DNA of 64,000 nucleotides from NCBI GenBank assembly GCA_027069135.1, contig JALXFE010000182.1, forward strand, positions 67,175 through 131,174, given 5' to 3'. Below are positions 1-30,248 of the stretch, one piece after another. The notes under the pieces were generated by a model. The model searched no databases, had not been told where the DNA came from, and saw nothing but the letters and a program-made list of their open reading frames with translations. Position 1 is the stretch's first letter, and every line of letters begins with the position of its first letter. Made by a program: the position numbers and the translations under genes. The stretch comes from Thermoanaerobaculia bacterium. GTDB lineage: Bacteria; Acidobacteriota; Thermoanaerobaculia; Multivoradales; JAHZIX01.

Positions 1-1186
1 CATCCTGTTGGGCAACTATTTCAAAGCCGAGAACCTCCTCGATCTCAAGACTCGGAATGTCCTGCCGAACGATCTGGACCGGGCGACCAACGGCGGCGGG
101 GTTACGTTCTGGCTCAACGTGGCGAAGGCCGAGGCCCCCGGTGGCCGAGCCTTCGAGGAACGAACCGTCGAGGCTGGATTGGCCCACCACACCGGGTGGA
201 CCCTGGATCTGGGCCACGGCGATCTGGACAACGATGGCGACCAGGATTTCTATCTGGCCGGGGATTACGGGACGGATCGGTTGTTTATGAACCGAGGGGA
301 CGGCCGATTCAAAGATGTGACGGCCACAGCGATCGGTTTTGATACCCGCAAGGGAATGAACGTCGACATGGGGGATTACAACCGGGACGGCTACCTCGAT
401 ATCTACGTGACCAACATCACGGACGAGTACATGAAGGAATGCAACATGCTGTGGCACAACAACGGGGACGGAACCTTCGTGGATCTGTCGAGGGAGACCG
501 GGACCTGCGACACGGATTGGGGGTGGGCCGGAAAGTTCGCGGATTTTGACAACGACGGCTGGGAAGATCTCTTCGTTGTGAACGGCCTTCGTTCCGCCGG
601 GGAGCGCAATTACATCCCGGCCCTCCTGGAAATGATCGTGACCCCGAACGTCGATTTTTCCGATATCGACAGCTATCCGGATATCGGGAATATGACCTGG
701 AGTGGCTATCAGAAGCAGCGGCTCTTTCACAATCTCTCGGACGGCACCTTCAAGGAGGTCGCCGGAGCGGCGGGGGTGGACAATGACCTCGACGGTCGGG
801 GTGTCGGCATCGGCGACTTCGACAACGACGGCCGGCTCGATATATACCAGACCAACGCCAACCAGCCCGCCTTGATGTTCCACAACATCGCCGAAAAAAG
901 CGGGCATTGGCTGCAGGTGCAGCTCCGAGGCACGGTGTCGAATCGCGACGCCATCGGAGCCCGGGTGACCCTACGCTCCGGCGGAGTGTCCCAACTGCGG
1001 GAGGTCAACGGTGGCAACGGGTATGCCAGTCAGGAGACCTCCCGACTGCATTTTGGCCTAGGAGCTGCAACCAAAATCGAGTCGTTGGAGATTCGCTGGC
1101 CTTCCGGGATCCTCCAGACCCTGCGGCCGACCCGGGTGGACACTCTCCTCATCATCGACGAAACGCGAAAGGCGGCGAGCTCCTGA
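1..1186 (+). CDS. FG-GAP/VCBS-repeat protein with C-terminal ASPIC/UnbV domain (CRTAC1-like). 5' end lies outside the window.
   Basis: Open frame from the window edge with no start inside. Repeated Dx[DN]xDGxxD calcium-binding-like motifs (DLDNDGDQD, DFDNDGWEDL, DFDNDGRLD). C-terminal '...RDAIGARVTL...GGNGYASQETSRLHFGLG...IRWPSG' is typical of the ASPIC/UnbV domain. Stop TGA at 1184-1186. Confidence 0.8.
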   Translation, partial: ILLGNYFKAENLLDLKTRNVLPNDLDRATNGGGVTFWLNVAKAEAPGGRAFEERTVEAGLAHHTGWTLDLGHGDLDNDGDQDFYLAGDYGTDRLFMNRGDGRFKDVTATAIGFDTRKGMNVDMGDYNRDGYLDIYVTNITDEYMKECNMLWHNNGDGTFVDLSRETGTCDTDWGWAGKFADFDNDGWEDLFVVNGLRSAGERNYIPALLEMIVTPNVDFSDIDSYPDIGNMTWSGYQKQRLFHNLSDGTFKEVAGAAGVDNDLDGRGVGIGDFDNDGRLDIYQTNANQPALMFHNIAEKSGHWLQVQLRGTVSNRDAIGARVTLRSGGVSQLREVNGGNGYASQETSRLHFGLGAATKIESLEIRWPSGILQTLRPTRVDTLLIIDETRKAASS

Positions 1187-4100
1187 TGGCTATCGATAGG
1201 GCTCGTTCCCAGAGGCTGTTTCTGGCCGTTGCATGCTTGGTCCTCGGGGCGACGGTAGGGCCGGTACTCAGGGTCGGGGCAACGAATTCTGTGGAAGAAA
1301 AGCTGTGGCAGCACCGCAATCTCGGAAAGGCCTTCTACGAGAATCCGGCGACGCAATACGAAGCCGTGAGTGAATTGCGCAAGGCTCTGGAGCTCGCACC
1401 GAGCTCGGCGATAGAGAGGGTCAACTACGGGCTCTCCCTGCTCCGGGCCGGCCAGGAAGCCGAAGGCATCGTGGAGTTGGAGAAAGCCCAGAAGCAGGAC
1501 CCTTCGATCCCCCATACCTGGTTCAACCTGGGGATTGCCTACAAGAAGGCCTCGCGCTATGACGATGCCCGCCGGCAACTCGAGGGGATGATCGCTCGGG
1601 TACCGGACGATGCCATCGCCCACTACAACCTCGGGATCCTCTTCAAGCTCGACGGCAATCTGGAGAAGGCCCTGTTCCACCTGCAGCGCGCCGCCCGCCT
1701 CGACCCGACGTTGGCGGGGCCCCATTTTCAGTTGGCGACGGCCTATCGTCAGGCGAAACGGCCGGAGGATACCCGGCGCGCCATGCAGCGCTTTCGTGAG
1801 ATCAAGGCGAAGAAAGGCGACACTACGGAAGATCTGGAGTGGAGCTTCTACTCGGAGCTGGCGGAGGCTCGGCTGCCGGAGCATGCCAAGGCGGTCGGCA
1901 AGGTGGTGTCCCTGCGCCTCGGGGCGGTGGAGGTCTCGGGCGGCTTCGACCCGGGCAGCTCAGGCCTCGTGATCCTGGACCTCGATGGCGACGGAGGCCG
2001 GGACCTGATCGCCTGGTCGAAGGCGGGTATCAAAGCCTTTCGGGACGCCGCGACGAAGGCCCAAGTCGGGCTCGGGAACCTCGAGGGGATTCTCGATATA
2101 GCACCGGCGGATTTCGACAACGACGGATTGACGGATCTCGCGGTGGTTCAAAAGAGTGGGCCGAAGCTGTGGGTCAATACGGGAGGTCGGTTTCGAGCCA
2201 GCCCGACGGAGATGCCCAAGGGCAGCTTTCGGCGTGTCCTTTGGCTGGATGACGATCACGACTACGATCTCGACCTGTTCCTGCTCGGTAGGAGCTCCGC
2301 CCGCTTACGCAACCGGGGGGCGGCCGGGTTTTCTGACGAGACGTCCGGCTTCCCCTTCGCTGCGGGCAACGCGACCGATGCTGTCGTCTTCGACCTCCTC
2401 GCCGACACCCAGGGCTTCGATCTGGCGGTGGTGTACTCCGACCGGCCGGCGGTTCTTTATCGGGACCGCCTAGGGGGTCGCTACGAACGTCAGGAGTTGG
2501 GAGCCGAGCTCCCGGCGGCACGTCGGATCATCGCCCACGACTACGACCACGACAGCTGGACCGACCTGATCGCCGCGGGGGAGCGGGGCCTGGTGCTGCT
2601 CCACAACCAGCAGGCCGGAGGGCTACACCATCGAAAGCTGGTGGCCGTCGCCGGGCCCGAGGTCACGACCTCGGCCCTGGGCTTCGCGGATCTGGAGAAC
2701 CGCGGCGTCAGCGACCTCCTGACGACCGCCGGAGTGCACCGCAACCAGGGCCTTGGCCGCTTCGCCGCGGTCGGCTCGGACCTGGAAGGGACATCCGCCG
2801 TTGCGAGTGCGGATTTCGACGGGGACGGGCGCATCGACCTTGCGACCATCGACGGACGCGGCTCCCTGAAAGTCTGGCGCAACACCACCGAGGGCGGCGG
2901 CTGGCTTGAGGTACGCCTCGAAGGCGTCAAGAACACCCTCCTGGCACAGGGTGCCGAAATCGAAGTCAAGGCCGGCACGCGGTACCAGAAGAAAAGCTAT
3001 CAGGGCACGGCTGTGCACTTCGGTCTGGGGGACGCGAGCCGTGCGGATACGGTGCGCATCACTTGGCCCAATGGCATGATCCAGAACGAAGCTCGCCAAC
3101 CGGGCAACCGGGCGTTCGTCTACAAGGAAGCCCAACGTCTCTCCGGTTCCTGCCCGATGGTCTTTACCTGGAACGGGAAGGGCTTCGAATTCATCACCGA
3201 CGTCCTGGGTGTCGCGCCCCTGGGGGCTGCGGCGGGGGACGGGGAGTACTTTCCCGTGGACCATGACGAATACATCTGGATTCCGGGCAGCTCCCTGGTT
3301 CCGAGAAATGATCGCTACGAGATCCGAATCACCGAGGAGCTTCGAGAGATCGCCTACCTGGACGAGATCCGGTTGATCCCCGTCGATCATCCCGAAGACG
3401 AGGAAATCTTTCATAACGATAAATTCAAGGGTCCTCCCTTTCCGGACTTCCGCCTCTTCGCCGCAGACGAGCGGATCTACCCGGTCGCCGCGCGGGATCA
3501 ACTGCGCCGGGAGGTCCGAGATCGCCTCCTGGCCGCCGACGGGGCCTACGTTGATGGCTTTCGGCGGAATTATTCCGGAATCGGTGAGATGCATACCTTG
3601 GAGCTGGATTTCGCTCCCACGACGGACGCGGCCTCAGCGGTCCTGATCCTCTCCGGTTGGGTCGACTGGGCCGACGGCAGTACCTTCCTGGGGCTGGCCC
3701 AGGAGCGGGGTGACGGCCTTGTGATGCCCTACCTGCAGGTGCGCACACACGAAGGGGGCTGGCAAACGGTGATCGAGGATATGGGAATCCCCGCCGGCAA
3801 ACCTAAAACGATCGCGGTAGACCTCTCCGAGGCCTGGAGCAAGGGGGGGCGGCAGTTTCGCATCGTGACCAATCTCTGCCTTTATTGGGACGAGGTGTTT
3901 CTGATCGACGCCCTTACCCCGTCGGTTCGTCTCGATCCGCTGCAGGCCCAGGAGGCGAAGCTGCGGTTTCGGGGATTCTCCCGGGCGGTGGTGCATGAGA
4001 AGAGATTGCAGCCGGAGCGCTTCGTCTATGCGGATCTTAGGGCCACTTCGATGTGGAATCCGACCCCCGGCCGCTATACCCGCTACGGGGAGGTTCGTTC

Positions 4101-4437
4101 CCTGCTGTGGGCCACCGACGACCGGATGGTCATCATGGGTTCGGGGGACGAGCTAGCCCTATCCTTCGACGCCACTGCCTTGCCTCCTTTGAAGCCAGGC
4201 TGGCGTCGTGATTTCCTCCTCTTTGTCGACGGCTGGGCCAAGGACGGTGATGCCAATACGGCTCACTCACAAACCGTGGAACCCCTTCCGTACCATCGCA
4301 TGCCCCAATATCCCTACGCCGAGCCCGACTCTTTTCCCGACGGCGAGCCCTACCGGCGATACCGGCGAGATTTTAATTCCCGACCCGCCCTCCGATTGAT
4401 TCGACCGTTGGCCGAAAGGAGAGCCCTCGAGCGATGA
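1186..4437 (+). CDS. Large secreted/membrane-anchored protein: N-terminal signal anchor, TPR repeats, FG-GAP repeats, ASPIC/UnbV domain, ~440-aa uncharacterised C-terminal extension.
   Basis: ATG at 1186 overlaps the upstream stop (TGATG). The ORF-track start at 907 would overlap gene 1 and is rejected. Hydrophobic N-terminus 'RLFLAVACLVLGATVG'. TPR-like helices (NLGIAYKKASRYDDARRQLE...AHYNLGILFKLDGNLEKA). FG-GAP motifs (DLDGDGGRD, DFDNDGLTD, DFDGDGRIDL). UnbV signature '...GAEIEVKAGTRYQKKSYQGTAVHFGLG...ITWPNG'. The stop overlaps the next start (ATGA). Confidence 0.8.
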   Translation: MAIDRARSQRLFLAVACLVLGATVGPVLRVGATNSVEEKLWQHRNLGKAFYENPATQYEAVSELRKALELAPSSAIERVNYGLSLLRAGQEAEGIVELEKAQKQDPSIPHTWFNLGIAYKKASRYDDARRQLEGMIARVPDDAIAHYNLGILFKLDGNLEKALFHLQRAARLDPTLAGPHFQLATAYRQAKRPEDTRRAMQRFREIKAKKGDTTEDLEWSFYSELAEARLPEHAKAVGKVVSLRLGAVEVSGGFDPGSSGLVILDLDGDGGRDLIAWSKAGIKAFRDAATKAQVGLGNLEGILDIAPADFDNDGLTDLAVVQKSGPKLWVNTGGRFRASPTEMPKGSFRRVLWLDDDHDYDLDLFLLGRSSARLRNRGAAGFSDETSGFPFAAGNATDAVVFDLLADTQGFDLAVVYSDRPAVLYRDRLGGRYERQELGAELPAARRIIAHDYDHDSWTDLIAAGERGLVLLHNQQAGGLHHRKLVAVAGPEVTTSALGFADLENRGVSDLLTTAGVHRNQGLGRFAAVGSDLEGTSAVASADFDGDGRIDLATIDGRGSLKVWRNTTEGGGWLEVRLEGVKNTLLAQGAEIEVKAGTRYQKKSYQGTAVHFGLGDASRADTVRITWPNGMIQNEARQPGNRAFVYKEAQRLSGSCPMVFTWNGKGFEFITDVLGVAPLGAAAGDGEYFPVDHDEYIWIPGSSLVPRNDRYEIRITEELREIAYLDEIRLIPVDHPEDEEIFHNDKFKGPPFPDFRLFAADERIYPVAARDQLRREVRDRLLAADGAYVDGFRRNYSGIGEMHTLELDFAPTTDAASAVLILSGWVDWADGSTFLGLAQERGDGLVMPYLQVRTHEGGWQTVIEDMGIPAGKPKTIAVDLSEAWSKGGRQFRIVTNLCLYWDEVFLIDALTPSVRLDPLQAQEAKLRFRGFSRAVVHEKRLQPERFVYADLRATSMWNPTPGRYTRYGEVRSLLWATDDRMVIMGSGDELALSFDATALPPLKPGWRRDFLLFVDGWAKDGDANTAHSQTVEPLPYHRMPQYPYAEPDSFPDGEPYRRYRRDFNSRPALRLIRPLAERRALER

Positions 4438-7391
4438 GCACACCAGAAAGTCCCAAGAGCCGCCCGAAGACCGCCGTCCGGGCCAAGAGGCCCAAGGCTT
4501 TACCGCCGGGCTTCAAGCGCCGCCGGCCCGCCCTGGGACGGCGTTTGACCAAGTTGCTCTCCTTCGTCTTCGCCCTCTTCGCGCTCTTGGCGATCAATTC
4601 CACCTACCTGGTGGGGGTGTCGGTGATGGAATGGTGGAACGGCGAGACCTACCAGAACTGGTTCTATCTGAATATGTTTCTTGTGCACCTGCTCCTGGGT
4701 GCCCTGATCCTGTTTCCCATCCTGGTGTTCGGTGTCTGGCATTTCCGGAACACCTACGAGCGGCCCAATCGGCGAGCCGTCAAGGTCGGCGTCGCTCTAT
4801 TTGGATGCTCCCTCGTCCTGCTCGCCAGCGGCATCGTCTTGACGAGGTTGGAAGGGTTGATCGTCGTCAAAGATCCACAGATTCGTTCCATCGCCTATTG
4901 GGCCCATGTGATCACTCCTATTCTCGTGGCCTGGCTTTTCGTCCTGCACCGTCTCGCGGGGAAACGGATTCGGTGGAAAGTCGGCCGGCGGTGGGCCACC
5001 GTGGCGGCGGTGTTTGCCGCCTCCATGCTGCTCTGGCAGGCCCAGGATCCTCGAAGTTGGAACGTCGAGGGGCCGGCTACCGGGGAACAGTATTTCTTCC
5101 CGTCTCTTTCGCGCACCGCGACAGGTGACTTCATTCCGGAAGAGGTCCTGATGAACGATCAATATTGTCTCGAATGTCACGAGGACAGCCATGAGACCTG
5201 GGCCGTTTCCGCGCATCGCTTCAGCTCATTCAATAACCCCGCCTATCTCTTTTCGGTACGCGAGACGAGACGGGTCGCTTTCGAGCGGGACGGTGATGTT
5301 CACGCTTCCCGATTTTGCGCCGGCTGCCACGACCCGGTGGTGTTTTTCTCAGGCAAGTTTGACGATCCGGAATTCGATGACGAGAGCGATCCGACGGGTC
5401 AAGCGGGGATCACTTGCACTGCCTGTCATGCGATCACCCATGTGAACAGTCCGCGGGGGAATTCCGACTACACGATCGAAGAACCGGTGCACTATCCCTT
5501 TGCCTTTGCGGAGAACAAGAGTCTGCGGTGGATCAACCGGCAGCTGGTCAAGGCCAAGCCGGAGTTCCACAAAAAGACTTTCTTGAAACCGCTGCACAAA
5601 TCGCCGGAGTTCTGCGGTACCTGTCATAAGGTCCATCTTCCCGAGGAGTTGAACAAGTACAAATGGCTGAGGGCTCAGAATCACTACGACTCCTATCATC
5701 TCTCGGGGGTCTCCGGGCACGGCGTCAGCAGCTTTTATTATCCCGAGAAGGCCGAGGAGAGCTGCAACGGCTGCCATATGGAGTTGCAGCCCTCGGAGCA
5801 ATTCGCCGCCGCGAGCTTCGACACCTCCGGGGAACGAACGATCCACGACCATCAATTCCCCAGCGCGAACTCGGCGATTCCTCACTTGCTCGACATGCCA
5901 AGTTGGGTCTTGGAGCGTCACCGCGCATTTAACGTCGGGGCCATGAGGCTCGATATCTTCGGCCTCCGGGAGGAGGGGCGGATCGACGGCGAACAGATGG
6001 CTCCATTACGCCCTGAGGTTCCGACTGTCAAGCCCGGCGAAACGTACCTTCTGGACGTCGTCATCCGGACCCTGAAGCTGGGCCATCATTTCACCCAGGG
6101 GACGACGGATTCAAACGAAATATGGCTTGACGTTCGGGTGACCGGTCAGCGTGCCACCGGCATCGAGACCTTTGGCCGGAGCGGTGGCCTGGGGGCGCGG
6201 AATCAAGTCGATCCCTGGTCTCATTTTGTAAACTCCTATGTTCTCGATCGTCATGGACATCGTATCGATCGGCGCAACGCTCAAGATATTTTCGTCTCCC
6301 TCTACAACCACCAAATTCCGCCGGGAGCTGCATCGACGATCCACTATCGTCTGGAGGTTCCGGAGGATGTCCGCGGACCGATCACCATCGAGGCGGACCT
6401 CTACTACCGCAAATTCGATACCCGGTTCATGGAGCATCTCTCAGACAGCGGCTCAGCCGTCAACGAGCTTCCAGTGTTGAGGCTGGCTTCCGACCGCATC
6501 GTTCTACCCGTCGCGGGAGTCGGAGTCGAGATCGCCGGATCTTCTTCTCCGATTCCCGAGTGGGAGCGCTGGAACGACTACGGGATCGGTCTGTTGCTCA
6601 AGGGGGGGAAGACCAAGGGGGAGCTGCGGCAGGCCGAGGAAGCCTTTCGACGGGTTGAAGCCCTGGGCCGTCCGGAGGGTCCGCTGAATCTCGCTCGGGT
6701 CTACATCGCCCAGGGTACGGTGCGAGACGAGGCCATTGAGGCTCTCGACCGTGCCGCGTCCTTCGATCCTCCAGCGCCACCGTGGACCGTCGCGTGGTTC
6801 ACGGGAATCGTCAACAAACAGAATGGATTCCTCGACAAGGCGATCGCGAACTTCGAATCCATCGTCGCTCTCGACACGGCGGAAACTCGGGATCGCGGGT
6901 TCGATTTTTCCCAGGACTACCGCCTTCTCAACGAGCTGGGGCAGACTCTATTCGAACGAGCCAAGGCGGAGCGGGGGGAGGCTAGAGCCGCCGCCCGGGC
7001 CAGCCTGTTGAACAAGGCGGCGCAACGATTCGAGCAGACGTTGGCGTTGGACCCGGAGAACACCACGGCTCTGTACAACCTCGACCTCGTCTACCGTCAG
7101 CTGGGCCAAGCCGAGGCGGCGGCCCGGTACCGCGATCTCTACCTGGTCTACAAGAGCGACGACAACGCCCGGGATCGGGTGCTGACCATCGCCCGGCGAC
7201 AGGATCCTGCGGCGAATCACAGCGCCGAGGCCATCGTGATTTATGACTTGCACCGCGAGGGTGCTTCGGAGCTGGGGGGGCTCAGTCGTCGGGTGGAGGC
7301 CTTCGTGCTCACGCCTACCGAGTCCCGTCGTACCGAAGAGCCGAAAGTGGCCTCCCTCGGTATCCGAGATCTGGAGGATTCTGAGCGATGA
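4434..7391 (+). CDS. Membrane-anchored multiheme (5x CxxCH) c-type cytochrome with C-terminal TPR repeats.
   Basis: Five predicted TM helices within the first ~200 aa. Five heme-binding motifs: CLECH, CAGCH, CTACH, CGTCH, CNGCH. C-terminal TPR-like region (NLARVYIAQG..., ALYNLDLVYRQLGQAEAA). ATGA overlaps with both neighbouring genes. Confidence 0.8.
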   Translation: MSTPESPKSRPKTAVRAKRPKALPPGFKRRRPALGRRLTKLLSFVFALFALLAINSTYLVGVSVMEWWNGETYQNWFYLNMFLVHLLLGALILFPILVFGVWHFRNTYERPNRRAVKVGVALFGCSLVLLASGIVLTRLEGLIVVKDPQIRSIAYWAHVITPILVAWLFVLHRLAGKRIRWKVGRRWATVAAVFAASMLLWQAQDPRSWNVEGPATGEQYFFPSLSRTATGDFIPEEVLMNDQYCLECHEDSHETWAVSAHRFSSFNNPAYLFSVRETRRVAFERDGDVHASRFCAGCHDPVVFFSGKFDDPEFDDESDPTGQAGITCTACHAITHVNSPRGNSDYTIEEPVHYPFAFAENKSLRWINRQLVKAKPEFHKKTFLKPLHKSPEFCGTCHKVHLPEELNKYKWLRAQNHYDSYHLSGVSGHGVSSFYYPEKAEESCNGCHMELQPSEQFAAASFDTSGERTIHDHQFPSANSAIPHLLDMPSWVLERHRAFNVGAMRLDIFGLREEGRIDGEQMAPLRPEVPTVKPGETYLLDVVIRTLKLGHHFTQGTTDSNEIWLDVRVTGQRATGIETFGRSGGLGARNQVDPWSHFVNSYVLDRHGHRIDRRNAQDIFVSLYNHQIPPGAASTIHYRLEVPEDVRGPITIEADLYYRKFDTRFMEHLSDSGSAVNELPVLRLASDRIVLPVAGVGVEIAGSSSPIPEWERWNDYGIGLLLKGGKTKGELRQAEEAFRRVEALGRPEGPLNLARVYIAQGTVRDEAIEALDRAASFDPPAPPWTVAWFTGIVNKQNGFLDKAIANFESIVALDTAETRDRGFDFSQDYRLLNELGQTLFERAKAERGEARAAARASLLNKAAQRFEQTLALDPENTTALYNLDLVYRQLGQAEAAARYRDLYLVYKSDDNARDRVLTIARRQDPAANHSAEAIVIYDLHREGASELGGLSRRVEAFVLTPTESRRTEEPKVASLGIRDLEDSER

Positions 7392-9286
7392 AACTCTTTG
7401 AGGAAGTCTCCGCCGAAACGTCCACCGACGGTCCACCGCCTGAAGCCTCCCTGCCCGGGGGCGAGGATTGGGAGGTGGTACCTGAGGACGAGGTCCAAGA
7501 TGACGAGATCATCGGCCGCGTCTTCAAGGCTTCTCTGTGGGTCATAGCCGCGGTCATCGTGGGCCTCGGGGCCTTTTTTCTCTTCAGCCAGGACGAGGCC
7601 CTCAGCGAGGAGCGCTCGATCACCGTGGCGGCGCCGGAGGCGATTGGTGAAATCTCGGCGACACCGACGATGCCTTTCAGCGACGTTACCCAAGAGGCTC
7701 GGATCGACTTTGTTCACAACAACGGCGCCTACGGAGACAAGTTGTTGCCGGAGTCTTTGGGCGGCGGCGTCGCCTTTCTGGATTTCGATTCCGACGGTGA
7801 CCAGGATCTCCTTTTTGTCGATAGCGGGGAGTGGGCTCACCAGTCGTCGGTCCTCGAGCCTCCGGTGGCTCTTTATCGCAATGAAGGCGGTTTTCGCTTC
7901 ACCGATGTGACTCGTAGGGCGGGCCTAGAGGATCTGACCTCCACCGGGTCCTATGGCATGGGGGTGGCAGTTGGTGATTACGACGGGGACGGCGATCCCG
8001 ATCTTTTCCTGACGGCCGTCGGATCCAACCGATTGCTGCGCAACGACAGCGGCAGATTTCTCGACGTGACGGACAAGGCCGGGGTTGCCGGCCTCGAGGA
8101 CGATTGGTCCACTTCCGCGGCGTTTCTGGATGTCGATGGCGATCGGGATCTCGACCTGGTGGTCTGTAACTATGTTCGCTGGTCCAAAGAGATCGACTTC
8201 GAACTCGATTTCCGTCTGACGGGAATCGGCCGCGCTTTCGGACCACCCCAGAGCTATGAGGGCTCCTACCCCTACCTTTACCGTAACGACGGGTCCGGGG
8301 TCTTCACGGAGTTCACCGCGGAGTCCGGCTTGAAGGTCGAGAATCCGGCGACGGGAGAGCCGATGGCGAAGTCACTGGCCCTGGCGCCGGCGGATGTCGA
8401 CGGCGACGGTTGGATGGATTTCATCGTCGCCAACGACACGGTGCGCAATTTCTTCTTCCACAACCAGGGTGGGACGTTCGAGGAGATTGGCGAGGTCCTG
8501 GGAGTCGCCTACGACCGCAACGGCAATGCCACCGGCGCTATGGGCGTCGACGTCGGGCACTACCGCAACGATGGCAACCTGGGTTTCCTGATCGGCAACT
8601 TCGCCAACGAGATGAGCACGGTCTATATGAGTCAGGACGACCCGTTGTTTTACGTCGATGAGGCGATCAGCGAAGGGATCGGTGCCCCCAGCCGTAGCGT
8701 CCTGACCTTCGGTCTGTTTCTCTTCGATGCCGATCTCGACGGTCGTCTGGATCTTTTCCAGGCCAACGGCCACCTCGAAAGCGAGATTCAGGCGGTGGAT
8801 CCCAGCCAGACCTACCGGCAGGCGGCACAGATTTTCTGGAATGGCGGCGACGAGGGCTTTCTTCCTCTGGACCCGGGGGCGACAGGGGATCTGAGCCAAC
8901 CGGTCGTCGGACGGGGAGCGGCCTATGCGGACCTCGACGACGATGGCGATCTGGATATCGTACTGACCCAGGTGGCCGGCCCACCGCTGCTGCTGCGCAA
9001 CGACCAGAATTCCGGTCACCATTGGCTGCGCCTACGGCTGGTGAATCCGGGCCCCAATTGGGATGCCATCGGAGCCTGGGTTACGGTGCGCGCTGACGGC
9101 ATCTCGCAGCGGCGCCAGGTAATGCCGACACGAAGCTATCTTTCCCAGGTAGAGTTGGCCCTCACGTTCGGTTTGGGGGACAGTCCAACGGTAGAATCCG
9201 TAACGATTCTCTGGCCCGACGGGCTGGAGGAAGACTTGGGATCCCTGCCGGTGGATCGCCTCCATCGGATAGAGCGGAAACTCTAG
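7388..9286 (+). CDS. FG-GAP/ASPIC-UnbV protein with N-terminal transmembrane anchor (CRTAC1-like).
   Basis: TM segment 'LWVIAAVIVGLGAFFLF' after an acidic cytoplasmic N-terminus. Motifs DFDSDGDQD, DYDGDGDPDL, DVDGDRDLD, DLDDDGDLD. UnbV tail 'NWDAIGAWVTVRADG...LTFGLGDS...ILWPDG'. Start ATGA-coupled to the upstream gene. Confidence 0.8.
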   Translation: MKLFEEVSAETSTDGPPPEASLPGGEDWEVVPEDEVQDDEIIGRVFKASLWVIAAVIVGLGAFFLFSQDEALSEERSITVAAPEAIGEISATPTMPFSDVTQEARIDFVHNNGAYGDKLLPESLGGGVAFLDFDSDGDQDLLFVDSGEWAHQSSVLEPPVALYRNEGGFRFTDVTRRAGLEDLTSTGSYGMGVAVGDYDGDGDPDLFLTAVGSNRLLRNDSGRFLDVTDKAGVAGLEDDWSTSAAFLDVDGDRDLDLVVCNYVRWSKEIDFELDFRLTGIGRAFGPPQSYEGSYPYLYRNDGSGVFTEFTAESGLKVENPATGEPMAKSLALAPADVDGDGWMDFIVANDTVRNFFFHNQGGTFEEIGEVLGVAYDRNGNATGAMGVDVGHYRNDGNLGFLIGNFANEMSTVYMSQDDPLFYVDEAISEGIGAPSRSVLTFGLFLFDADLDGRLDLFQANGHLESEIQAVDPSQTYRQAAQIFWNGGDEGFLPLDPGATGDLSQPVVGRGAAYADLDDDGDLDIVLTQVAGPPLLLRNDQNSGHHWLRLRLVNPGPNWDAIGAWVTVRADGISQRRQVMPTRSYLSQVELALTFGLGDSPTVESVTILWPDGLEEDLGSLPVDRLHRIERKL

Positions 9287-9380
9287 AGGTCTTACCTAGG
9301 GGGCAGGTGCCGGCTTCAGCGCTCAGACCCTCGGGTGGCGGAGTCGGGATCTGCCGGATCGGCATACCTGGAGGACATCG

Positions 9381-11174
9381 ATGAAAGTACCGGCCGCCTT
9401 GATGCTGGCCCTTTTCGCCCTGGGAGGCTGCGGCGCTGAGCCTCCCAGCGCTCCCGAAGCCGCCGACGAGGGCCGGGAGCTCGTCTCGGCCTTCCGTTTC
9501 GAGGAGGTCGGGCGAGAGTCAGGCCTCTCGTTTCACCATTTCTCCGCCGTGCGCGCAGCACTTCTACCGGAGGACAACGGGTCCGGTCTGGCCTTCGGCG
9601 ACTACGACAACGACGGCTACGACGACCTCTATCTCGCCAACCTGGCCGGCCCGGTATTGATGTCCCGCGACGAGCTCCAGGCGACCCGGGAAGGTGGCAA
9701 GCTGTACCGCAATCTGGGTGACGGAACCTTTGAAGATGTCACCGAGACGGCCGGTGTCGAGCATGTCGGGTGGGACGGCGGGGTCCTGTGGGCCGACTTC
9801 AATGGCGACGGTTGGCTCGATCTGCTGCTGACCGGGATCGACGAGATCGCCCTCTTCGAGAATCTGGGCGGCGGAACCTTCGAGGATCGAAGCGCCGCCG
9901 CCGGTCTGGGGGAGACTCCCTGCATGGCCATGGGGGCGACGGCCGGGGATTATGACCGCGATGGCGATCTCGACCTTTACGTACCCTGCTACGTGGAATT
10001 CCCCTGGGAGCGGGCGCGGGATCGCCCGTTGGTAGGGGGGCGCCCGTCCACCATGACGACACCGGCCAACTATCCACCCCAGGCCAATCGGCTTCTGCGC
10101 AACGACGGTGACGGCCGTTTCGAGGACGTTGCAGCTCCCGCCGGGGTCGCCGACCCCCAAGGGCGCGGGCTCCAGGGTACCTTCGTCGATTTCGACGGCG
10201 ACGGCTGGCAGGATCTCTATGTGGCCAACGATCAAAGCTTCGACCGGCTGTTTAGGAACTCCGCCGACGGAACCTTCGAGGACGTCACCATCCCGGCGGG
10301 CACCCGCGACCCGCGGGCGGGTATGGGGATCGGCCTGCACGACTTCGACGACAACGGCCAGGTGGACCTCTTCCTGACCCATTGGGTCGGAGAGCAGAAT
10401 GCCTTGTACCGCAATATGTCGGATGTGGGTGCCTTGCTCTTCGAGGATCGTGTCTACGAGGAGGGCCTAGGCCCCATCGCCGAAGCCCTGGTCGGTTGGG
10501 GAACGGGCTTTGCCGACTTCGATCTGGACGGATTCGAGGATCTCTTCATCGTCCATGGCTCGACGGTCGAAGACGAGTGGACCCTCGATGTTTTGAAGGA
10601 GCCGAAAATGATTCCTCAGGAGCTGATGGTCTTCGCCGGTAGCGACGATGGCTTCGAGGACGTGTCCGCCGCATCCGGAGCGATTTTCAGGGAGAGATTC
10701 GTCGGCCGAGGCATGTCCTTGGCGGATTACGACCGCGACGGGCGGGTGGATGTGGCGGTGCTGGTTCATAACGGGGAGCCCCTACTCTTGCACAACCGCT
10801 CCGAGCCCCGAGGTGGAGCCTGGCTGGGGATCCAACTGGCCAGCGGAGGCAAGAATCGCTGGGCCGTAGGGTCCAAAGTGACCGTTCACTCGACCACGGA
10901 GGACGGTTCCGCCCGCCGTCAGTCCGCCTGGCGGGTGGTGGGGGAGAGCTACGCCGGTACCCATTCGGCGACCTTGCATTTCGGTCTGGGCTCCGCCACC
11001 GCCGCTCGAGTGGAGGTACTATGGCCCGATGGCAAGATCGATCACTTCGGGCCCGTGCCCCTCGACCGAATCTTGGTGCTCCACAAGGGTTCTCCGACCT
11101 GGCATGAGCTACCCGAGGACCCCGTCGATCCCCGCCCCTGGGGGTCGCTTCCTCTCACTGAATTTGGAGACTGA
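9381..11174 (+). CDS. Lipoprotein FG-GAP/ASPIC-UnbV protein (CRTAC1-like).
   Basis: Lipobox signal 'LMLALFALGGC'. SD GGAGGA 5 nt upstream of ATG. Motifs DYDNDGYDDL, DFNGDGWLDL, DYDRDGDLDL, DFDGDGWQDL, DFDDNGQVDL. UnbV tail 'GSKVTVHS...HFGLGSATAARVEVLWPDG'. Confidence 0.8.
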   Translation: MKVPAALMLALFALGGCGAEPPSAPEAADEGRELVSAFRFEEVGRESGLSFHHFSAVRAALLPEDNGSGLAFGDYDNDGYDDLYLANLAGPVLMSRDELQATREGGKLYRNLGDGTFEDVTETAGVEHVGWDGGVLWADFNGDGWLDLLLTGIDEIALFENLGGGTFEDRSAAAGLGETPCMAMGATAGDYDRDGDLDLYVPCYVEFPWERARDRPLVGGRPSTMTTPANYPPQANRLLRNDGDGRFEDVAAPAGVADPQGRGLQGTFVDFDGDGWQDLYVANDQSFDRLFRNSADGTFEDVTIPAGTRDPRAGMGIGLHDFDDNGQVDLFLTHWVGEQNALYRNMSDVGALLFEDRVYEEGLGPIAEALVGWGTGFADFDLDGFEDLFIVHGSTVEDEWTLDVLKEPKMIPQELMVFAGSDDGFEDVSAASGAIFRERFVGRGMSLADYDRDGRVDVAVLVHNGEPLLLHNRSEPRGGAWLGIQLASGGKNRWAVGSKVTVHSTTEDGSARRQSAWRVVGESYAGTHSATLHFGLGSATAARVEVLWPDGKIDHFGPVPLDRILVLHKGSPTWHELPEDPVDPRPWGSLPLTEFGD

Positions 11175-11177
11175 CCT

Positions 11178-11906
11178 ATGAGATTTCCCCAAGTTTTTGT
11201 CCCGGGCGCCGAGGTGGCCCTCGTCGCCTTGAGTCTCGCCGCCTGCACTACCGCGGACAGCACGGCGCCCGGGCCCGGAACCGAGACCGCGGACACATCG
11301 AGCGCCAAGACCGTGACCGGCGGCAAGCCCTATCACGGTCTCTTGGAGTATCGGGCCAAGGACGCCAAACTCGCGTTGGTGCGCCCTACGCTGGTGACGG
11401 CCGCCGAGGCGGCCCTGGCCTCCGGAGTCCGCGTGGTCGGAGTGGCGGCGGACGGTGAGAGCCGTGCCTATCCCCTATATGTCTTGAAGAACCATCAGAT
11501 CGTCAACGATCAGGTAGGGGGAACGCCGATCGCGGCGTCCTGGTGAGCCTCCGAGCAATCGGTCGTGGTTCACGACCGCCGCGTCGGAGAGAAAGAACTG
11601 ACCCTCGGGGTCTCCGGAAAGCTGATCGATGGCAACCTCGTCATGTACGACACGGAGACGGATTCCTTATGGCACCAGGCCTCCGGGGAGGCCAAGGACG
11701 GTGAGTTAGAGGGCCAGCAGCTGGCCGAGCTACCCGCCGAGGAGTGGGGTGTGTATCGCTGGGGAGAGTGGCTCGAGCTCCATCCGGAGACCTTGGTCCT
11801 GACCTGCGCCCACTGCGAGGGTCGTGGGGAAGCCACCGGAACGATCGACGAGTTGCACCGAGAGAAGGCCGAGAGTGAGAAAGGTGATGGACATAAGGAG
11901 GGGTAG
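11178..11906 (+). CDS. DUF3179-family lipoprotein interrupted by a single in-frame TGA (11544-11546). Candidate selenoprotein or recently inactivated gene.
   Basis: Lipobox 'LSLAAC'. The two track ORFs 11178-11546 and 11565-11906 are in the same frame, separated only by the TGA. Sequence around the TGA (...YPLYVLKNHQIVNDQVGGTPIAASW*ASEQSVVVHDRRVGEKELTLGVSGKLIDGNLVMYDTETDSLWHQ...WLELHPETLVLT) matches the DUF3179 core as I recall it (...GGTPvavtYCPLCgtg..fdR.vdg..ltFgvSGlLynsNlvmyDreTeSlWsQ), with the TGA at the position of the first conserved Cys. Confidence 0.5.
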
Positions 11907-15374: not shown

Positions 15375-18300
15375 TTAACCCCTCCCGCCAGTGATTCGTC
15401 TCTCGACCTCTTTCCAGGCCTTGTCAATCTGCAGGTCGACGCCGATGAACTCCAGGCGGGTGGAGGTTTCCAGTCGGTGGTAGGGGTCGTTGGTGTCGCG
15501 GACGGCGCCGAGCCAGTTGAAGGAGCCGTCGATGTACCAGCGGCGGTCGACGGCCAGGAGCTTGGAGTGGATGCGGGGCACTGGGTGGACCTCGGCACCG
15601 CATTGCCTCAAGTCTTCGGCGACTTCGGCGGCGACCTCCGGGCGGCGGTGGAGGTCGACGCAGTAGAGGATTTTTACCTCGACGCCGCGGTGGTGGGCTT
15701 GCCGTAGCGCTGCGTCGATGCCGTCCGCTTCGATGGCCCGGCGGGTCAGGTAGGGGGAGACGATGAGAACCTGCTCCTGGCTTTCGCGGAGGGCCTCCCG
15801 GAGAGCCTCGCGATGATCTTCGAGGGTTAGGAGCTGGCGGGCCGGGAGCTTGCCCGCCTCGGCCTGCCTCCACAGGTCGGGAGAAGGCGCCACATCGCCG
15901 ATCTCATTCTCCGGGACCTCGAAAATATGAGTCGCCAGGACCCCGGAAGGGCCGGGGCTCATGGGGTCGAAGAGCTCCATGTCGCCGAAGACGAGGAAGG
16001 CGTCCTTGGCACGGGAGACGGCGACGTTGAGCATGTTCTTGCCATCGTCGAAGAAGCGTTTCTTCGGTGCGGTTTCGGCGCAGTAGACGGGGGAGAAGAT
16101 CATGATCTCCCGCTCCGCCCCCTGGAAGGTGTGGACGGTACCGATTTCGGCGATGGGGACAGCGTCCTTCTTCCCGGAGCCTCCTCCCTTGCCAGCGCCT
16201 TTCCCCTCCTTCCGCCGACCGGGGGATTTCGGGGTCAGGGCCTTGATGAGCTCCGTGCGCTGGGCGGAAAAGGGGGTCACCACACCGACCAGTTCCTCGA
16301 GGGGCCGGCCGTCGTAGAAGGCTTCGATTTCCTCCCGGCGCCCATGAAGCCAGCGGGCGATGGCCCAGGCCTCCCCGGCATTGGCCCAACTGCCCCGGAC
16401 CCGCTTCGCCTCGGATCGGACGTGGGCCCAGCCGAAAGCCGGCAAGGGGCTCGAGGGCAGCGCTTCCCGATGGGGTTCCAATTGGCCGCCGTAGACCAGC
16501 TGGTTGCAGTAGCTAATGATCTGAGGCACGCATCGTCGGTGCTCGCGCAGAAAGAGCCCGTCGCGGCGCGGAGAAGCGGTCCAGCGGGTGGCCCGTTGGG
16601 CGAGGCGCAAGAGGCTGCTCGAGCTACAGCGGAAGGGATCGAGATCCTGGGAGCCGGCGTCCAGACCTGCGGCGCGGAGATTTGCCGAGTCGACTCGGCG
16701 GTGGATGCCCCAGATGGGTTCGATCTGGTGCTCGTCGCCGATGACGATGGCTCGTTTGGCCAGCGGCAGCACGGCGGCTCCGATCTCCGGCGCCACCTGT
16801 CCCGCCTCATCTACGATCAACAGATCCAGGGCACCGATCAGAGGGAAGGCGCGGCCTTCCTCCCGGTCGTAGTAGTCGAAGACCCGGGGGGAGCGGAAGA
16901 GGGTCGAGACCAGGGCCGGCGTCAGCTTGGCAAGGCGCCGAAAGCGCAGGAGACGGGCCTGGTCGAGGGGCATGGGGGCGTGTTCGCTGGCGGAGAAGAG
17001 CTCTTCCATCTCCTGCAGCCAGCGGCCCTCCCAATAACGGGCGGCGAGCTGAAAGAGCCGGTGCCTCAGGCCCACGTCGAGGAAGAGGGGAACCGCCCGG
17101 ATCGGTGACGCCGTCGACGCCAATGCCTCCGACAACGGCGACTCGGGGTCCTGAGTCGTCAGCTGCATGCGGATCCACCGCAGGAGCTCGGCCTCTTCCT
17201 CCTCGGGGGCGAGGAGAATTCTTACGTGTCGGAGCAGGGTGGTCTCGAAATTCGAGGATCCGAGCTCCGGGGTGGGCAGCTCCCGTTCGATGAGGGGCCA
17301 GCCGAGCCACCGATCCCGGCGGCGGCGAACCGCCGGGAAGAAGTCGAAGAGCTCCAGGTACCAGGGCAGGTTCCGGCAAGCTCCGAGGAGCTCGGCCCGA
17401 AGCTTGCTCCGGTCCTGATGCAGGCCCTCGAGAGCCCCCAGGCGACGATCCAGGGAGCTCGGATCCCAGGCCTTGGTCACGTCCTTGGCGGCCCGGCGGG
17501 CGGTGGACTCCAGGCGCTGTTTCAGATCTGCGGCGGAGTCCCGAAGCTGCCGTCGAAGCTCCGTCACGACTTTGTCGACGGTGAGCCCGGTAGCGCTGAA
17601 CCCCAGGACCCCTTGCGCCCGGTCGAGGTAGTGGGAATGGGCTTCCTTCACGTAGCGGGAGGTCTCCATCTCGCCCAAGGAGCCCCGCAGGGTATTGCCG
17701 GCCAATTCCGCCGTTTGGTATTTCTTCTCCGGCTCGTTGCGGGTCTGGGATGCGGCGGGAAAGAAGAGTCCGTAGGAGCGGATCTCCGGCAGCCATCGGG
17801 TCGCGAGCCCTTCTTTTTCGTTCTCAGCGGCGGCGTCGAAGCTATCCAGGACATTGGTGACCGCCTGGTTGTTGGTGGAGCAGACGTGGATCAAGGGAGG
17901 TTCGCTACCCTCGAGGGCCCGCTGTACCCACAGGGACGCCACGATGCTCTGGACGAGGGTGGTCTTGCCGGTCCCCGGCGGCCCGTTGACCGCCAGGATC
18001 TCTCCGTCGCGAAGCTCGAGAGCGCAGGCCAGACTCTGGCGTTGGGACGGGCCCAGGGGAAAGCGGCCCGTCATCTGTCCCAGGTGGGAGAGCCCCCCGC
18101 CGGCCCCCGGATCGTCCGGCCCCGCGGCGGGCTTGGCCCCCGGCGCTCGAGCTAGGCTCTGAAGGACCGCCGGAGCCGGATCTATTCCGAGGACAAAGTC
18201 CGCCAGGTCGATGAGGGGCTTGCGAAAGCCTTTCTCGATTTGTTGGACCGCAAAGCGAGGCCCCAGAACTTCGAAATCCTCAAGCTGATACTCCGAGGGC

Positions 18301-18989
18301 ATCTCGCCGGAGACGGCTTGAAACAAATCTTGCGCATAGGTGAGGACCGCCGGCCACTCCTCATCGACGGGCGGCTCTTCCCGAGTCAGGAAGCTATCGA
18401 AGGCCTCGAGCATTCCCAGAGTCCAGGCGTCCCCGGTGACCGGCTCGAGGAATTGTCGAGGAATCCACGGCGGGTGCAGGGGATCACCGTACAGCCGGCC
18501 GCTGCGGTCGAGGAGGGCACAGATCCAAAGAGGGTAGAGGAGGGTTTCCTTGCGATCGGAGATCCAGCCGTGGAAAGCCCGGCGGGAAAGGACCAGCGGA
18601 GCGACCAAGAGGGGAGCCCGGCGCAGGGGCGGTAGCTTTTTCTTCGCCTTTGGAGGTAGCTTTCGGCGTCGATCCTCTTCCGCGATTTCGAAGGATCGGT
18701 CGACGAATTCCAAAGGCACGGTACCGGCCAGGAGGTGGCCCCGGGAGAGCTCGAAGACTTCCAGCGAGCGCAGATTGGGGTTGATCAGGTCCGCGTCGGC
18801 CAGGCAAGCCCGGAAATACTTGAGCAGCTTAGGGGGAGTGATGCGAGCTGTCACCGGCGAAGCCTGGGAGGGCGAGGGGTTGGCGGGCGACGGCATGGGC
18901 AGGATCATATCCTCCGCCCGAGTCAGTAGGGGGAGGCCAAGGCTAGCCGAAGTCCCCGTCTTTCCACCGGCCAACGATGTGATCGGCAC
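15375..18989 (-). CDS. Large SF1 (Upf1/DNA2-like, AAA_11/AAA_12) helicase fused to a C-terminal PLD/HKD nuclease domain, with a ~320-aa N-terminal domain of unknown function.
   Basis: Walker A 'VNGPPGTGKTT'. Motif II 'LIVDEAGQV'. 'VIGDEHQIEPI'. 'LREHRRCVPQIISYCNQLVYGGQL' (helicase motif IV of the DNA2/NAM7 type). 'VAVSRAKDAFLVFGD' (motif VI). C-terminal HKD 'RIHSKLLAVDRRWYIDGSFNW'. An alternative start at the internal Met (MILPMPS, ~18911) would remove the 47-nt overlap with the upstream GMC gene. Confidence 0.8.
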   Translation of the reverse strand: MPITSLAGGKTGTSASLGLPLLTRAEDMILPMPSPANPSPSQASPVTARITPPKLLKYFRACLADADLINPNLRSLEVFELSRGHLLAGTVPLEFVDRSFEIAEEDRRRKLPPKAKKKLPPLRRAPLLVAPLVLSRRAFHGWISDRKETLLYPLWICALLDRSGRLYGDPLHPPWIPRQFLEPVTGDAWTLGMLEAFDSFLTREEPPVDEEWPAVLTYAQDLFQAVSGEMPSEYQLEDFEVLGPRFAVQQIEKGFRKPLIDLADFVLGIDPAPAVLQSLARAPGAKPAAGPDDPGAGGGLSHLGQMTGRFPLGPSQRQSLACALELRDGEILAVNGPPGTGKTTLVQSIVASLWVQRALEGSEPPLIHVCSTNNQAVTNVLDSFDAAAENEKEGLATRWLPEIRSYGLFFPAASQTRNEPEKKYQTAELAGNTLRGSLGEMETSRYVKEAHSHYLDRAQGVLGFSATGLTVDKVVTELRRQLRDSAADLKQRLESTARRAAKDVTKAWDPSSLDRRLGALEGLHQDRSKLRAELLGACRNLPWYLELFDFFPAVRRRRDRWLGWPLIERELPTPELGSSNFETTLLRHVRILLAPEEEEAELLRWIRMQLTTQDPESPLSEALASTASPIRAVPLFLDVGLRHRLFQLAARYWEGRWLQEMEELFSASEHAPMPLDQARLLRFRRLAKLTPALVSTLFRSPRVFDYYDREEGRAFPLIGALDLLIVDEAGQVAPEIGAAVLPLAKRAIVIGDEHQIEPIWGIHRRVDSANLRAAGLDAGSQDLDPFRCSSSSLLRLAQRATRWTASPRRDGLFLREHRRCVPQIISYCNQLVYGGQLEPHREALPSSPLPAFGWAHVRSEAKRVRGSWANAGEAWAIARWLHGRREEIEAFYDGRPLEELVGVVTPFSAQRTELIKALTPKSPGRRKEGKGAGKGGGSGKKDAVPIAEIGTVHTFQGAEREIMIFSPVYCAETAPKKRFFDDGKNMLNVAVSRAKDAFLVFGDMELFDPMSPGPSGVLATHIFEVPENEIGDVAPSPDLWRQAEAGKLPARQLLTLEDHREALREALRESQEQVLIVSPYLTRRAIEADGIDAALRQAHHRGVEVKILYCVDLHRRPEVAAEVAEDLRQCGAEVHPVPRIHSKLLAVDRRWYIDGSFNWLGAVRDTNDPYHRLETSTRLEFIGVDLQIDKAWKEVERRITGGRG

Positions 18990-20472: not shown

Positions 20473-20518
20473 ATTTATATCTCGCCTAGGTTTTCAAGTC
20501 TAAAGTATACTGTGCGCG

Positions 20519-21541: not shown

Positions 21542-21580
21542 ACGTATTTCCTACAATTTTTTGGAGGTGTTGAGAAGCTC

Positions 21581-24838: not shown

Positions 24839-24862
24839 CATTGAAAATATCTACGGTATAAA
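24835..24862 (+). promoter_or_regulatory. Sigma70-like promoter (TTGACA-16 nt-TATAAA) immediately after, and overlapping, the lanM stop, positioned to drive the precursor gene.
   Basis: TTGACA at 24835-24840, TATAAA at 24857-24862, 16-nt spacer, in an AT-rich 170-bp intergenic region. Confidence 0.4.
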
Positions 24863-24965
24863 ATTAGCTTATTGTGATCTGTCGACTAATCTGACGCCTG
24901 AATGGTCGCCTGGGCGGGCGATAGGCGGACGATTGGACGACGTGAAGTTTCTGTCGGGAGGAATC

Positions 24966-25005
24966 CCTCCTTCTGGCGAGAACCTTCGCACTATCTAGAA
25001 GGAGG
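24966..25005 (+). promoter_or_regulatory. Hairpin that pairs the lanA Shine-Dalgarno (GAAGGAGG) with an upstream anti-SD (CCTCCTTCTGG).
   Basis: 24966-24976 cctccttctgg pairs with 24995-25005 ctagaaggagg: an 11-bp stem with one G.U pair and an 18-nt loop. ATG of lanA is at 25011. Confidence 0.45.
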
Positions 25006-25010
25006 CTTGG

Positions 25011-25235: not shown

Positions 25236-25265
25236 GCTCTTGAGGCTTTAGCTTTCGGCGGGTAA

Positions 25266-25300
25266 GACCACTGACGGGCCTTACCCGCCGGAGTCGGAGC
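25266..25300. terminator. Hairpin between convergent lanA and lanT. Candidate bidirectional terminator.
   Basis: cggcgggtaag (25266-25276) pairs with cttacccgccg (25290-25300): an 11-bp stem with a 13-nt loop. No clear U-tract. Confidence 0.35.
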
Positions 25301-25313
25301 CACGCCAGGGCCC

Positions 25314-30203: not shown

Positions 30204-30248
30204 ACCGCCCGACATCCAGATGAAAGAGTTGAGAGGAAGGGGAGAGAA

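Follow-up and report, generated by a model that had tools for sequence, protein, structure and literature searches.

A stretch of 64,000 nucleotides from a Thermoanaerobaculia bacterium of the phylum Acidobacteriota (assembly GCA_027069135.1, contig JALXFE010000182.1, positions 67,175 to 131,174; the whole stretch is referred to here as the window) begins with five genes on the plus strand, named g1 to g5, which together span positions 2–11174. The core gene of this cluster, g3 (4434–7391, +), encodes a polytopic membrane cytochrome of 985 amino acids (aa), and g4 (7388–9286, +) encodes a 632-aa type-II membrane protein in which a transmembrane (TM) anchor precedes an FG-GAP propeller and a UnbV_ASPIC domain, the domain combination of CRTAC1. 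g3 and g4 are kept side by side across genomes and are inherited together. We propose, with roughly even credence, that g3 may be a quinone-pool-linked electron conduit of the bc type, and that the two genes would form a membrane redox module serving g4 as its periplasmic, CRTAC1-type partner. Planctomycetota, Acidobacteriota and Bacteroidota are rich in bacterial ASPIC/UnbV proteins of the CRTAC1 family, for which, to our knowledge, a function has yet to be assigned.

Conservation of the g3–g4 gene pair

The pairing was assessed in two sets of loci. The first comprised 80 genome loci, which were compared with the proteins of the window by tblastn and by clustering of all open reading frames (ORFs); g4 was scored in the 69 loci with at least 1.5 kb of DNA downstream of g3, and had to be encoded on the g3 strand no more than 600 bp away. 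A g4-type gene, at 49–67% identity, directly follows g3 on the same strand in 63 of these 69 loci, and the remainder consist of one locus with a single gene between g3 and g4 and five without an adjacent g4. The second set was made up of divergent and metagenomic loci (L081–L163, g3 identity 40–69%), 59 of which had enough downstream DNA. Here 53 loci carry the pair, while g4 is displaced to +1216 bp in one further locus and encoded on the opposite strand in another. Over both sets, a g4 orthologue directly follows g3 in 116 of 128 loci from six or more phyla. Isosphaera pallida ATCC 43644, a planctomycete in culture, has the pair too; the gene after its g3 encodes an FG-GAP/UnbV protein of 629 aa and overlaps g3 by 4 nucleotides (nt) (L164, 8001–13081). 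In a marine Planctomycetota clade whose g3 is only about 40% identical, the order g2-like, g3, g4-like is found. The pairwise identities of g3 and of g4 are strongly correlated (r = 0.90, reached by 0 of 999 permutations), which shows that the two genes are co-inherited.

A functional link between the cytochrome and the ASPIC proteins had been suggested in a preliminary description of the locus. Cytochrome genes without ASPIC neighbours were therefore looked for as the case that would speak against it, and the adjacency of g4 in the great majority of loci and in I. pallida upholds the link. ASPIC/UnbV genes might instead be so numerous that their position next to a cytochrome gene is coincidental: the family is indeed abundant here, and the window holds a further ASPIC paralogue (45100–47181) that sits with a FadL-type gene. 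Chance linkage is nevertheless exceedingly improbable and effectively refuted, since the 116 pairs share the same orthogroup, position and strand, and the pairing is still seen where g3 identity has fallen to 40% and in an organism in culture. The g4 gene is, moreover, a distinct orthogroup and not just any ASPIC gene, because its orthologues in other phyla are 40–67% identical to it, whereas the propeller paralogues of the window are only 26–34% identical to one another.

The g3 family itself is large. Its homologues fall into more than 6000 clusters at 90% identity; those that bear a name are called 'hypothetical', 'TPR repeat protein' or 'multiheme c-type cytochrome'. The gene is present in at least 575 species (one genome per GTDB species) at 58–72% identity. 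Among the matches listed, carriers belong to Acidobacteriota (Thermoanaerobaculia, Vicinamibacteria), Latescibacterota, Planctomycetota (including Phycisphaerae, Planctomycetia and Isosphaeraceae), Gammaproteobacteria, Anaerolineales and 'Deltaproteobacteria' metagenome-assembled genomes (MAGs); many carriers are MAGs from sediment or soil. A metagenome scan with divergent members of the family yielded at least 569 confirmed stretches. The I. pallida protein (ADV63628.1/WP_013565916.1, 1064 aa) was originally annotated as 'response regulator aspartate phosphatase RapC', a misannotation driven by its TPR repeats.

Within the window, the cluster has the layout of a translationally coupled operon. 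The preliminary description had placed start–stop overlaps at three junctions, and these are read directly in the sequence: g1 (2–1186, +, its 5′ end cut by the window edge) and g2 (1186–4437, +) share one nucleotide in a TGATG (1184–1188, +), and ATGA overlaps of 4 nt, each with an upstream GGAG-type Shine-Dalgarno sequence, join the g2 stop to the g3 start (4434–4437, +) and the g3 stop to the g4 start (7388–7391, +). The g4–g5 gap is 94 nt, and g5 runs from 9381 to 11174 (+). A scan for promoters and terminators returned counts that match shuffled expectation, so that overlapping stop and start codons and a common strand coincide with no excess of terminators. With this arrangement, the operon products may be co-translated and form a complex. 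Start–stop overlaps are frequent in operons generally, and by themselves they are therefore weak evidence; the ATGA overlap of g3 and g4 recurs in 27 of 56 orthologous pairs, and the signal beyond chance is the adjacency of g3 and g4 kept across genomes, rather than the overlaps.

Conservation falls off rapidly outside the pair. Genes of the g2 type occur within 10 kb in about one quarter of the loci (20/80 in the first set and 17/83 in the second), g1-like genes lie upstream of g2 in only about nine close relatives, and outside the closest relatives g4 is not followed by a gene of the g5 type. The clustering of ORFs revealed no other neighbour family common to more than about 15 loci; unrelated neighbours that do recur (PBP, TraB, CN-hydrolase, sulfatase, ABC transporter) are each found in at most 10 of 80 loci. 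The conserved core is thus g3 and g4, with g2 as a frequent third member and with g1, g5 and the downstream genes being lineage-specific. Of the five-gene unit first described, the association of cytochrome and ASPIC genes is real, but its conserved part is g3 with g4, often joined by g2, and g1 and g5 are confined to close relatives. The downstream genes for DUF3179, TlpA and a P1B ATPase, which had been thought to fit cytochrome maturation or metal handling, are not conserved neighbours in the compared loci; the idea has no comparative support, and we rejected them as members of the module.

Some neighbourhoods have features of their own. In L081–L083, which belong to the divergent marine Planctomycetota clade (for example the TMED75-type MAG NHEC01000111.1), a CN_hydrolase gene runs into the start of the g2-like gene and is itself preceded by genes for Fer2 and an IscX-like Fe-S assembly protein, and a DHOR di-haem peroxidase-like gene and more FG-GAP genes lie just downstream. 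CN_hydrolase also lies upstream in about nine of the first 80 loci. In I. pallida, the g3–g4 pair adjoins a DUF1501 gene and a PSCyt2/PSD1 gene.

Modular structure of the g3 cytochrome

The g3 protein is composed of four consecutive parts: a membrane domain of five TM helices, a domain with five c-haem motifs, a beta-sandwich and a C-terminal TPR domain. The protein is under strong constraint, with 58–74% identity across phyla over about 950 residues. Mixed domain layouts within the family were considered and rejected, as even the divergent members (34–44% identity) retain the TM histidines, the five haem motifs and the TPR domain. Scans of g3 against Pfam and NCBIfam returned no dedicated family and generic haem and TPR matches alone. 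The AlphaFold2 (AF2) model, built from an alignment of 20 sequences, has an overall predicted local distance difference test score (pLDDT) of 62 and is confident only in the beta-sandwich and the TPR domain.

The pentahaem domain (residues 236–480; 5139–5873, +) is periplasmic by predicted topology and carries CxxCH motifs at residues 245, 295, 328, 394 and 444. By motif count, g3 has exactly five CxxCH and zero CX3CH or CXXCK; each motif is kept in 80 of 81 orthologues, and 79 of 81 have exactly five. At least six additional histidines of this domain are invariant. The sequence thus combines a CxxCH set, spare histidines for the distal positions and a location behind an odd number of TM helices, as expected of a multihaem c-type cytochrome. 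On the isolated haem domain, Cytochrome_C554 is the sole Pfam family above threshold (3.5e-8). Weak matches of g3 to Pfam MtrC/MtrF domains and to NCBIfam ExtKL stay below threshold. By profile search, the first three CxxCH motifs align with residues 42–139 of PDB entry 5ze8, 'cytochrome c552' (E = 5.9e-5). This pentahaem protein is a chain of 435 aa, of which some 100 residues align, and the TM, beta-sandwich and TPR parts of g3 are unmatched in it.

Two further modules follow the haems. The beta-sandwich (residues ~496–705; 5919–6548, +) is predicted from AF2 strands with pLDDT 75–93 and has neither a Pfam match nor a PDB sequence match by profile search. It contains the conserved histidines His551, His597, His626 and His637 and the motifs GHxFTQGTxDSNExW and LYNHQIPPGAA; the histidines could be distal haem ligands or constitute a separate metal site. 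The TPR domain (residues 709–925; 6558–7208, +) is supported by Pfam and by AF2 helical repeats with pLDDT 80–95, and a Foldseek search of the g3 model against the PDB retrieved TPR proteins only, including MamA structures. It is a probable docking surface for partners.

The N-terminal membrane domain (residues 36–203; 4539–5042, +) is the least conventional part of the protein. AF2 places helices at residues 36–69, 76–106, 113–136, 148–175 and 181–203, of which four exceed the Kyte-Doolittle threshold; the fifth is assumed because the CxxCH motifs must reach the periplasm. Lysine and arginine are counted 14 times in the N-terminus, four times in loop 101–116 and six times in loop 174–187, and are absent from loop 63–76, so that by the positive-inside rule the N-terminus and the two K/R-rich loops are predicted to be cytoplasmic. 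Four histidines, His85 and His103 in TM2 and His158 and His172 in TM4, are conserved in 80–81 of 81 orthologues, at spacings of H-x17-H and H-x13-H, respectively. The predicted orientation would put His85 and His158 towards the periplasmic side of the membrane and His103 and His172 towards the cytoplasmic side.

Two pairs of histidines on two TM helices at two depths are the classic bis-His pattern of di-haem membrane proteins, known from cytochrome b of the bc1 complex, NarI and FdnI. The g3 membrane domain has this arrangement, the depths being those given by the predicted topology, and because its conserved histidines follow the known pattern, g3 is probably a bc-type cytochrome with two b haems besides the five c haems. 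The preliminary description of g3 as a polytopic pentahaem c-type cytochrome therefore stands as to the five CxxCH motifs and the polytopic membrane part, and is incomplete in that it missed the four TM histidines, which probably make the protein bc-type, and the TPR domain.

No Pfam family matches residues 31–235 of g3 at E ≤ 10, the cytochrome b families and PF01292 included, and a profile search of the PDB with the membrane domain returned no chain at E ≤ 10 apart from chance matches. Among 1.84 billion representatives searched, 539 clusters match the domain at E ≤ 0.001. In all of the best 150 of these it is N-terminal, and the full-length ones measure 920–1220 aa, for which reason the domain appears to be restricted to the g3 family.

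It is quite unlikely, in our estimation, that the TM histidines bind no b haem at all and that the five-helix domain serves as an anchor, in haem handling, in metal binding or in sensing, with the c haems trading electrons solely with periplasmic carriers. Such a domain would fit the lack of haem-b family homology and the low AF2 confidence in this region, and haem-handling proteins of cytochrome c biogenesis also have conserved TM histidines. Yet the four histidines of g3 are near-invariant at two matching membrane depths, in the classic bis-His pattern, and a simple anchor needs one helix, not five conserved ones (74% mean column identity over the TM helices).

Several known inner-membrane cytochromes resemble g3 in general design. 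ImcH of Geobacter is a multihaem quinol oxidase of the inner membrane, for which a role in connecting the quinone pool with acceptors in the periplasm has been proposed; it has three TM helices, one atypical CX3CH and six CX2CH motifs in about 500 aa, and NapC/NirT-like features (PMC6295460). Like g3, it is a single polypeptide in which TM helices at the N-terminus precede a multihaem c domain in the periplasm. In contrast, g3 has five TM helices with four conserved histidines, exactly five CX2CH motifs and no CX3CH, and adds the beta-sandwich, the TPR domain and the propeller partner gene. Measured against the published description of ImcH, g3 was set apart from this family on its TM count, its haem motifs and the lack of a NapC/NirT match in Pfam. 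CbcL consists of nine N-terminal c-haem motifs and a C-terminal, HydC/FdnI-like domain of six TM helices (PMC6295460). CbcL, MtrH and MtoC resemble g3 in uniting, in one protein, a membrane domain predicted to bind two b haems and a multihaem c domain, but in CbcL the order is reversed relative to g3, and the g3 domain has no HydC/FdnI match at E ≤ 10; membership in the CbcL/MtrH/MtoC group was rejected on the missing PF01292 match (residues 31–235) and the opposite domain order. Assignment to NapC/NirT/CymA/NrfH, which have a single TM helix and a tetrahaem domain, fails on the five TM helices, the five haem motifs and the lack of a family match. No Pfam or PDB homology connects g3 to cytochrome b of bc1/b6 complexes, NarI, FdnI/HydC, b561, FRD/MsrQ or PepSY_TM/FoxB, and alternative complex III, in which ActA is the pentahaem subunit, was discounted by gene context, as no ActB–F genes (molybdopterin-like, NrfD-like) are present in the cluster or among conserved neighbours.

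The likeness to ImcH and CbcL raises the question of extracellular electron transfer, in which g3 would be an inner-membrane quinol oxidase feeding metal oxides or humics, and the propellers would bind a mineral or organic surface. Besides the shared general design (PMC6295460), the below-threshold MtrC/MtrF and ExtKL matches and the many carriers among sediment or soil MAGs are in keeping with such a role. We regard it as unlikely, since genes for porin-cytochromes, MtrAB-like proteins or other multihaem proteins are not among the conserved neighbours of g3, g3 lacks the defining features of ImcH and CbcL, and g4 is predicted to be tethered to the inner membrane and not to reside at the cell surface. 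The pair is, furthermore, present in I. pallida, an obligately aerobic heterotroph, and this, together with the missing conserved outer-membrane conduit genes, disfavours dedicated metal respiration.

The propeller proteins and a possible mechanism

Pfam matches and the CxxCH count agree with the initial picture of four CRTAC1-like proteins around a pentahaem membrane cytochrome. FG-GAP_3 (PF13517) is found in g1, g2, g4 and g5 with E-values from 4e-18 to 3e-42, UnbV_ASPIC (PF07593) scores 34.8–79.7 bits against a gathering cut-off of 23.4, and each protein has three to seven Dx[DN]xDG loops, which are putative calcium sites. CRTAC1 (PDB 9etn) shares FG-GAP_3, the Dx[DN]xDG loops and UnbV_ASPIC with all four; g4 differs from it in its N-terminal membrane helix and its genetic lock to a cytochrome, and we know of no redox context for CRTAC1.

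The variety of anchoring noted in the preliminary description, in which g2 is fused to TPR repeats, g4 has one TM segment and g5 has a lipobox-like start, was borne out. In g4, residues 48–66 (7529–7585) form the sole TM segment. Its only relative in the PDB is human CRTAC1 (9etn_A, E = 1.3e-12, g4 residues 343–613). Among g4 orthologues, the positions with at least 95% conservation are for the most part Gly, Asp, Arg and Pro, plus one Glu and one His (His462). The frequent third member, g2 (1083 aa), has an N-terminal signal or anchor segment and is secreted or anchored; TPR repeats (~1336–1860) are followed by an FG-GAP propeller with UnbV (~1978–3111) and an all-beta C-terminal region of 433 residues (3136–4434). 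This region has no match in Pfam or, by sequence, in the PDB. AF2 predicts it to be an all-beta multi-sandwich (pLDDT 81) with three beta-sandwich-like modules, for which Foldseek against the PDB found nothing at E ≤ 0.001, the best being low-probability folds resembling jelly-rolls or carbohydrate-binding modules, which gave no clue to a substrate. Many Acidobacteriota proteins share the region at 58–70% identity, and where the matches are long enough it stands after FG-GAP/UnbV domains. Both g1 (FG-GAP_3 3e-30, UnbV_ASPIC 1.5e-22) and g5 (597 aa, lipoprotein-type, with the lipobox-like N-terminal signal MKVPAALMLALFALGGC (...LFALGGC)) are accessory paralogues specific to this lineage.

The additional FG-GAP/UnbV_ASPIC paralogue of the window (45100–47181, +; 693 aa) extends into the beginning of a FadL/TodX-type outer-membrane channel gene (47178–48629, +). 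Because of this coupling, ASPIC paralogues in this genome seem to have partners other than cytochromes too.

In the quinone-linked module that we propose, g3 would reside in the inner membrane as a bc-type cytochrome with its N-terminus in the cytoplasm. Two b haems would be held between TM2 and TM4, one near the periplasmic face ligated by His85 and His158 and one near the cytoplasmic face ligated by His103 and His172, and the five-helix domain would thereby link the quinone pool to the periplasmic chain of five c haems. Electrons could flow in either direction, with quinol oxidation or quinone reduction at the membrane. The platform of beta-sandwich and TPR domain would dock g4, and often also g2. 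As partner, g4 would act through a calcium-binding propeller tethered by one helix in the same membrane as g3, and the ATGA overlap would keep it made in fixed proportion with g3, the pair being expressed as a unit. It might be either the site of electron delivery to, or uptake from, a periplasmic substrate, or a substrate-binding subunit. In this scheme g2 would be a frequent third subunit, and g1 and g5 extra paralogues recruited in this lineage.

Known systems offer precedents of principle. In MsrQ-MsrP, in FoxB-type siderophore reductases and in quinohaemoprotein dehydrogenases, a b-type cytochrome in the membrane, or an attached cytochrome, provides the connection between the quinone pool or respiratory chain and a partner in the periplasm; in the quinohaemoproteins this partner is a calcium-containing beta-propeller of the pyrroloquinoline quinone (PQQ) or W-motif type. 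The relation of g3/g4 to these systems would be one of functional analogy with no sequence relationship, g4 being of the FG-GAP type and having no cofactor signature. In non-anammox bacteria, a CRTAC1-family FG-GAP gene lies between homologues of the haem proteins hydrazine synthase (HZS) alpha and beta-gamma (PMC12758564). The haem proteins of these hydrazine-synthase-like clusters are not homologous to g3, and no TM cytochrome or TPR domain is present; by analogy, the clusters are a second, independent hint that CRTAC1-type propellers work with c-type haem proteins.

Several points weigh against a quinone-linked module. The mechanistic steps are all predictions from sequence; adjacent g4 is missing in about 7% of loci, where adjacency alone was scored; and the co-variation of g3 and g4 identities could result from shared genome ancestry alone. 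The membrane domain of g3, in which AF2 confidence is low (pLDDT ~50–60), has no detectable homology in Pfam or the PDB to any known haem-b protein. On the side of the partner, a conservation scan of the g4 orthologues found no conserved Cys and no redox-metal or cofactor site, and because no such signature is conserved, g4 may be non-catalytic.

This last point bears directly on what g4 does. An alternative to a redox role is one in scaffolding or assembly, in which g4 and g2 would be non-redox calcium-binding propellers that position, stabilise, regulate or tether the cytochrome to the envelope, while the real electron partner lies elsewhere among soluble periplasmic cytochromes, peroxide or oxygen species, or dissolved metal. 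The missing Cys/His cluster or cofactor signature in g4 orthologues would be explained, the TPR domains on g3 and g2 are typical protein-docking modules, and CRTAC1, the only relative of solved structure (9etn), is an extracellular binding protein that is not known to be an enzyme. However, a purely structural partner is not usually kept at 40–67% identity and in fixed order across at least six phyla, and g3 is already anchored in the membrane by five helices of its own; on balance we consider scaffolding somewhat improbable. Only a little more credence is due to the bolder form of the quinone-linked module, the tentative idea that the g4 propeller might be the catalytic or substrate-binding subunit of an unrecognised class of periplasmic oxidoreductase, wired to quinone by a new family of seven-haem (2 b + 5 c) bc-type cytochromes.

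Other features of the window and implications

Immediately downstream of g5, the 'DUF3179' gene (11178–11906, +) consists of two ORFs in the same frame, 11178–11546 and 11565–11906, split by a single in-frame TGA at 11544–11546 (…PIAASW-TGA-ASEQS…). Positions 7–63 of the Pfam DUF3179 profile are matched before the TGA and positions 72–150 after it. DUF3179 is listed as a prokaryotic selenoprotein family with the motif UxxC/T (PMC9312934), and the TGA is probably read through as selenocysteine to give a product of 243 aa. A pseudogene is also conceivable, as the residue at +3 is Glu and the profile is only half covered; a hairpin after the TGA (dG −27.5 kcal/mol, z −1.4) is not significant.

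A class II lanthipeptide cluster occupies 18943–27542. It contains a LanM (DUF4135 and LANC_like, 21581–24838) and an O-methyltransferase (20519–21541) and, on the minus strand, an ABC exporter with a C39 peptidase (25314–27542) and a GMC oxidoreductase (18943–20472). A candidate precursor of 74 aa (25011–25235) combines a nitrile-hydratase-like leader with a GG cleavage motif and a core rich in Cys and Thr (…VTGG-CCYPGNNTVTLCTGICSPCPPVHCY). A DUF1800/DUF1501 gene pair (28485–31607, +) is of a kind typical of Planctomycetota and Acidobacteriota, to which no function has been assigned. Two further genes encode a 1204-aa protein that joins a helicase-like part (AAA_11/AAA_12) to a PLD-type nuclease domain (15375–18989, −) and a 928-aa CHAT-domain protein (33678–36464, +); helicase–PLD nuclease fusions and CHAT-domain proteins are often found in defence or conflict systems. 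Scans of the 64-kb window for tRNAs and for Rfam families were both empty.

The module of g3 and g4 had been thought to be undescribed, and this appears to hold: neither the g3 family nor the g3–g4 pair is described in Pfam, NCBIfam or the searchable literature, full-text searches having returned no paper. While in principle like the membrane bc and multihaem cytochromes, g3 appears to combine an unprecedented TM domain, which resembles a new di-haem b module, with an unprecedented propeller partner, and it represents a large, strongly conserved and essentially unannotated cytochrome family. For bacterial relatives of CRTAC1, the pairing provides a first functional context, in the form of testable electron transfer at the inner membrane, and the presence of the pair in the cultured I. 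pallida ATCC 43644 makes its biochemistry feasible now. If g4 were indeed catalytic or substrate-binding, the ASPIC/UnbV–CRTAC1 superfamily would thereby gain its first redox or enzymatic function. If the pair is a quinone-linked oxidoreductase, it would constitute an unrecognised branch of electron transport in environmentally dominant heterotrophs of soil, sediment and ocean, new in kind, serving respiration or electron supply and common among Planctomycetota, Acidobacteriota and Latescibacterota.

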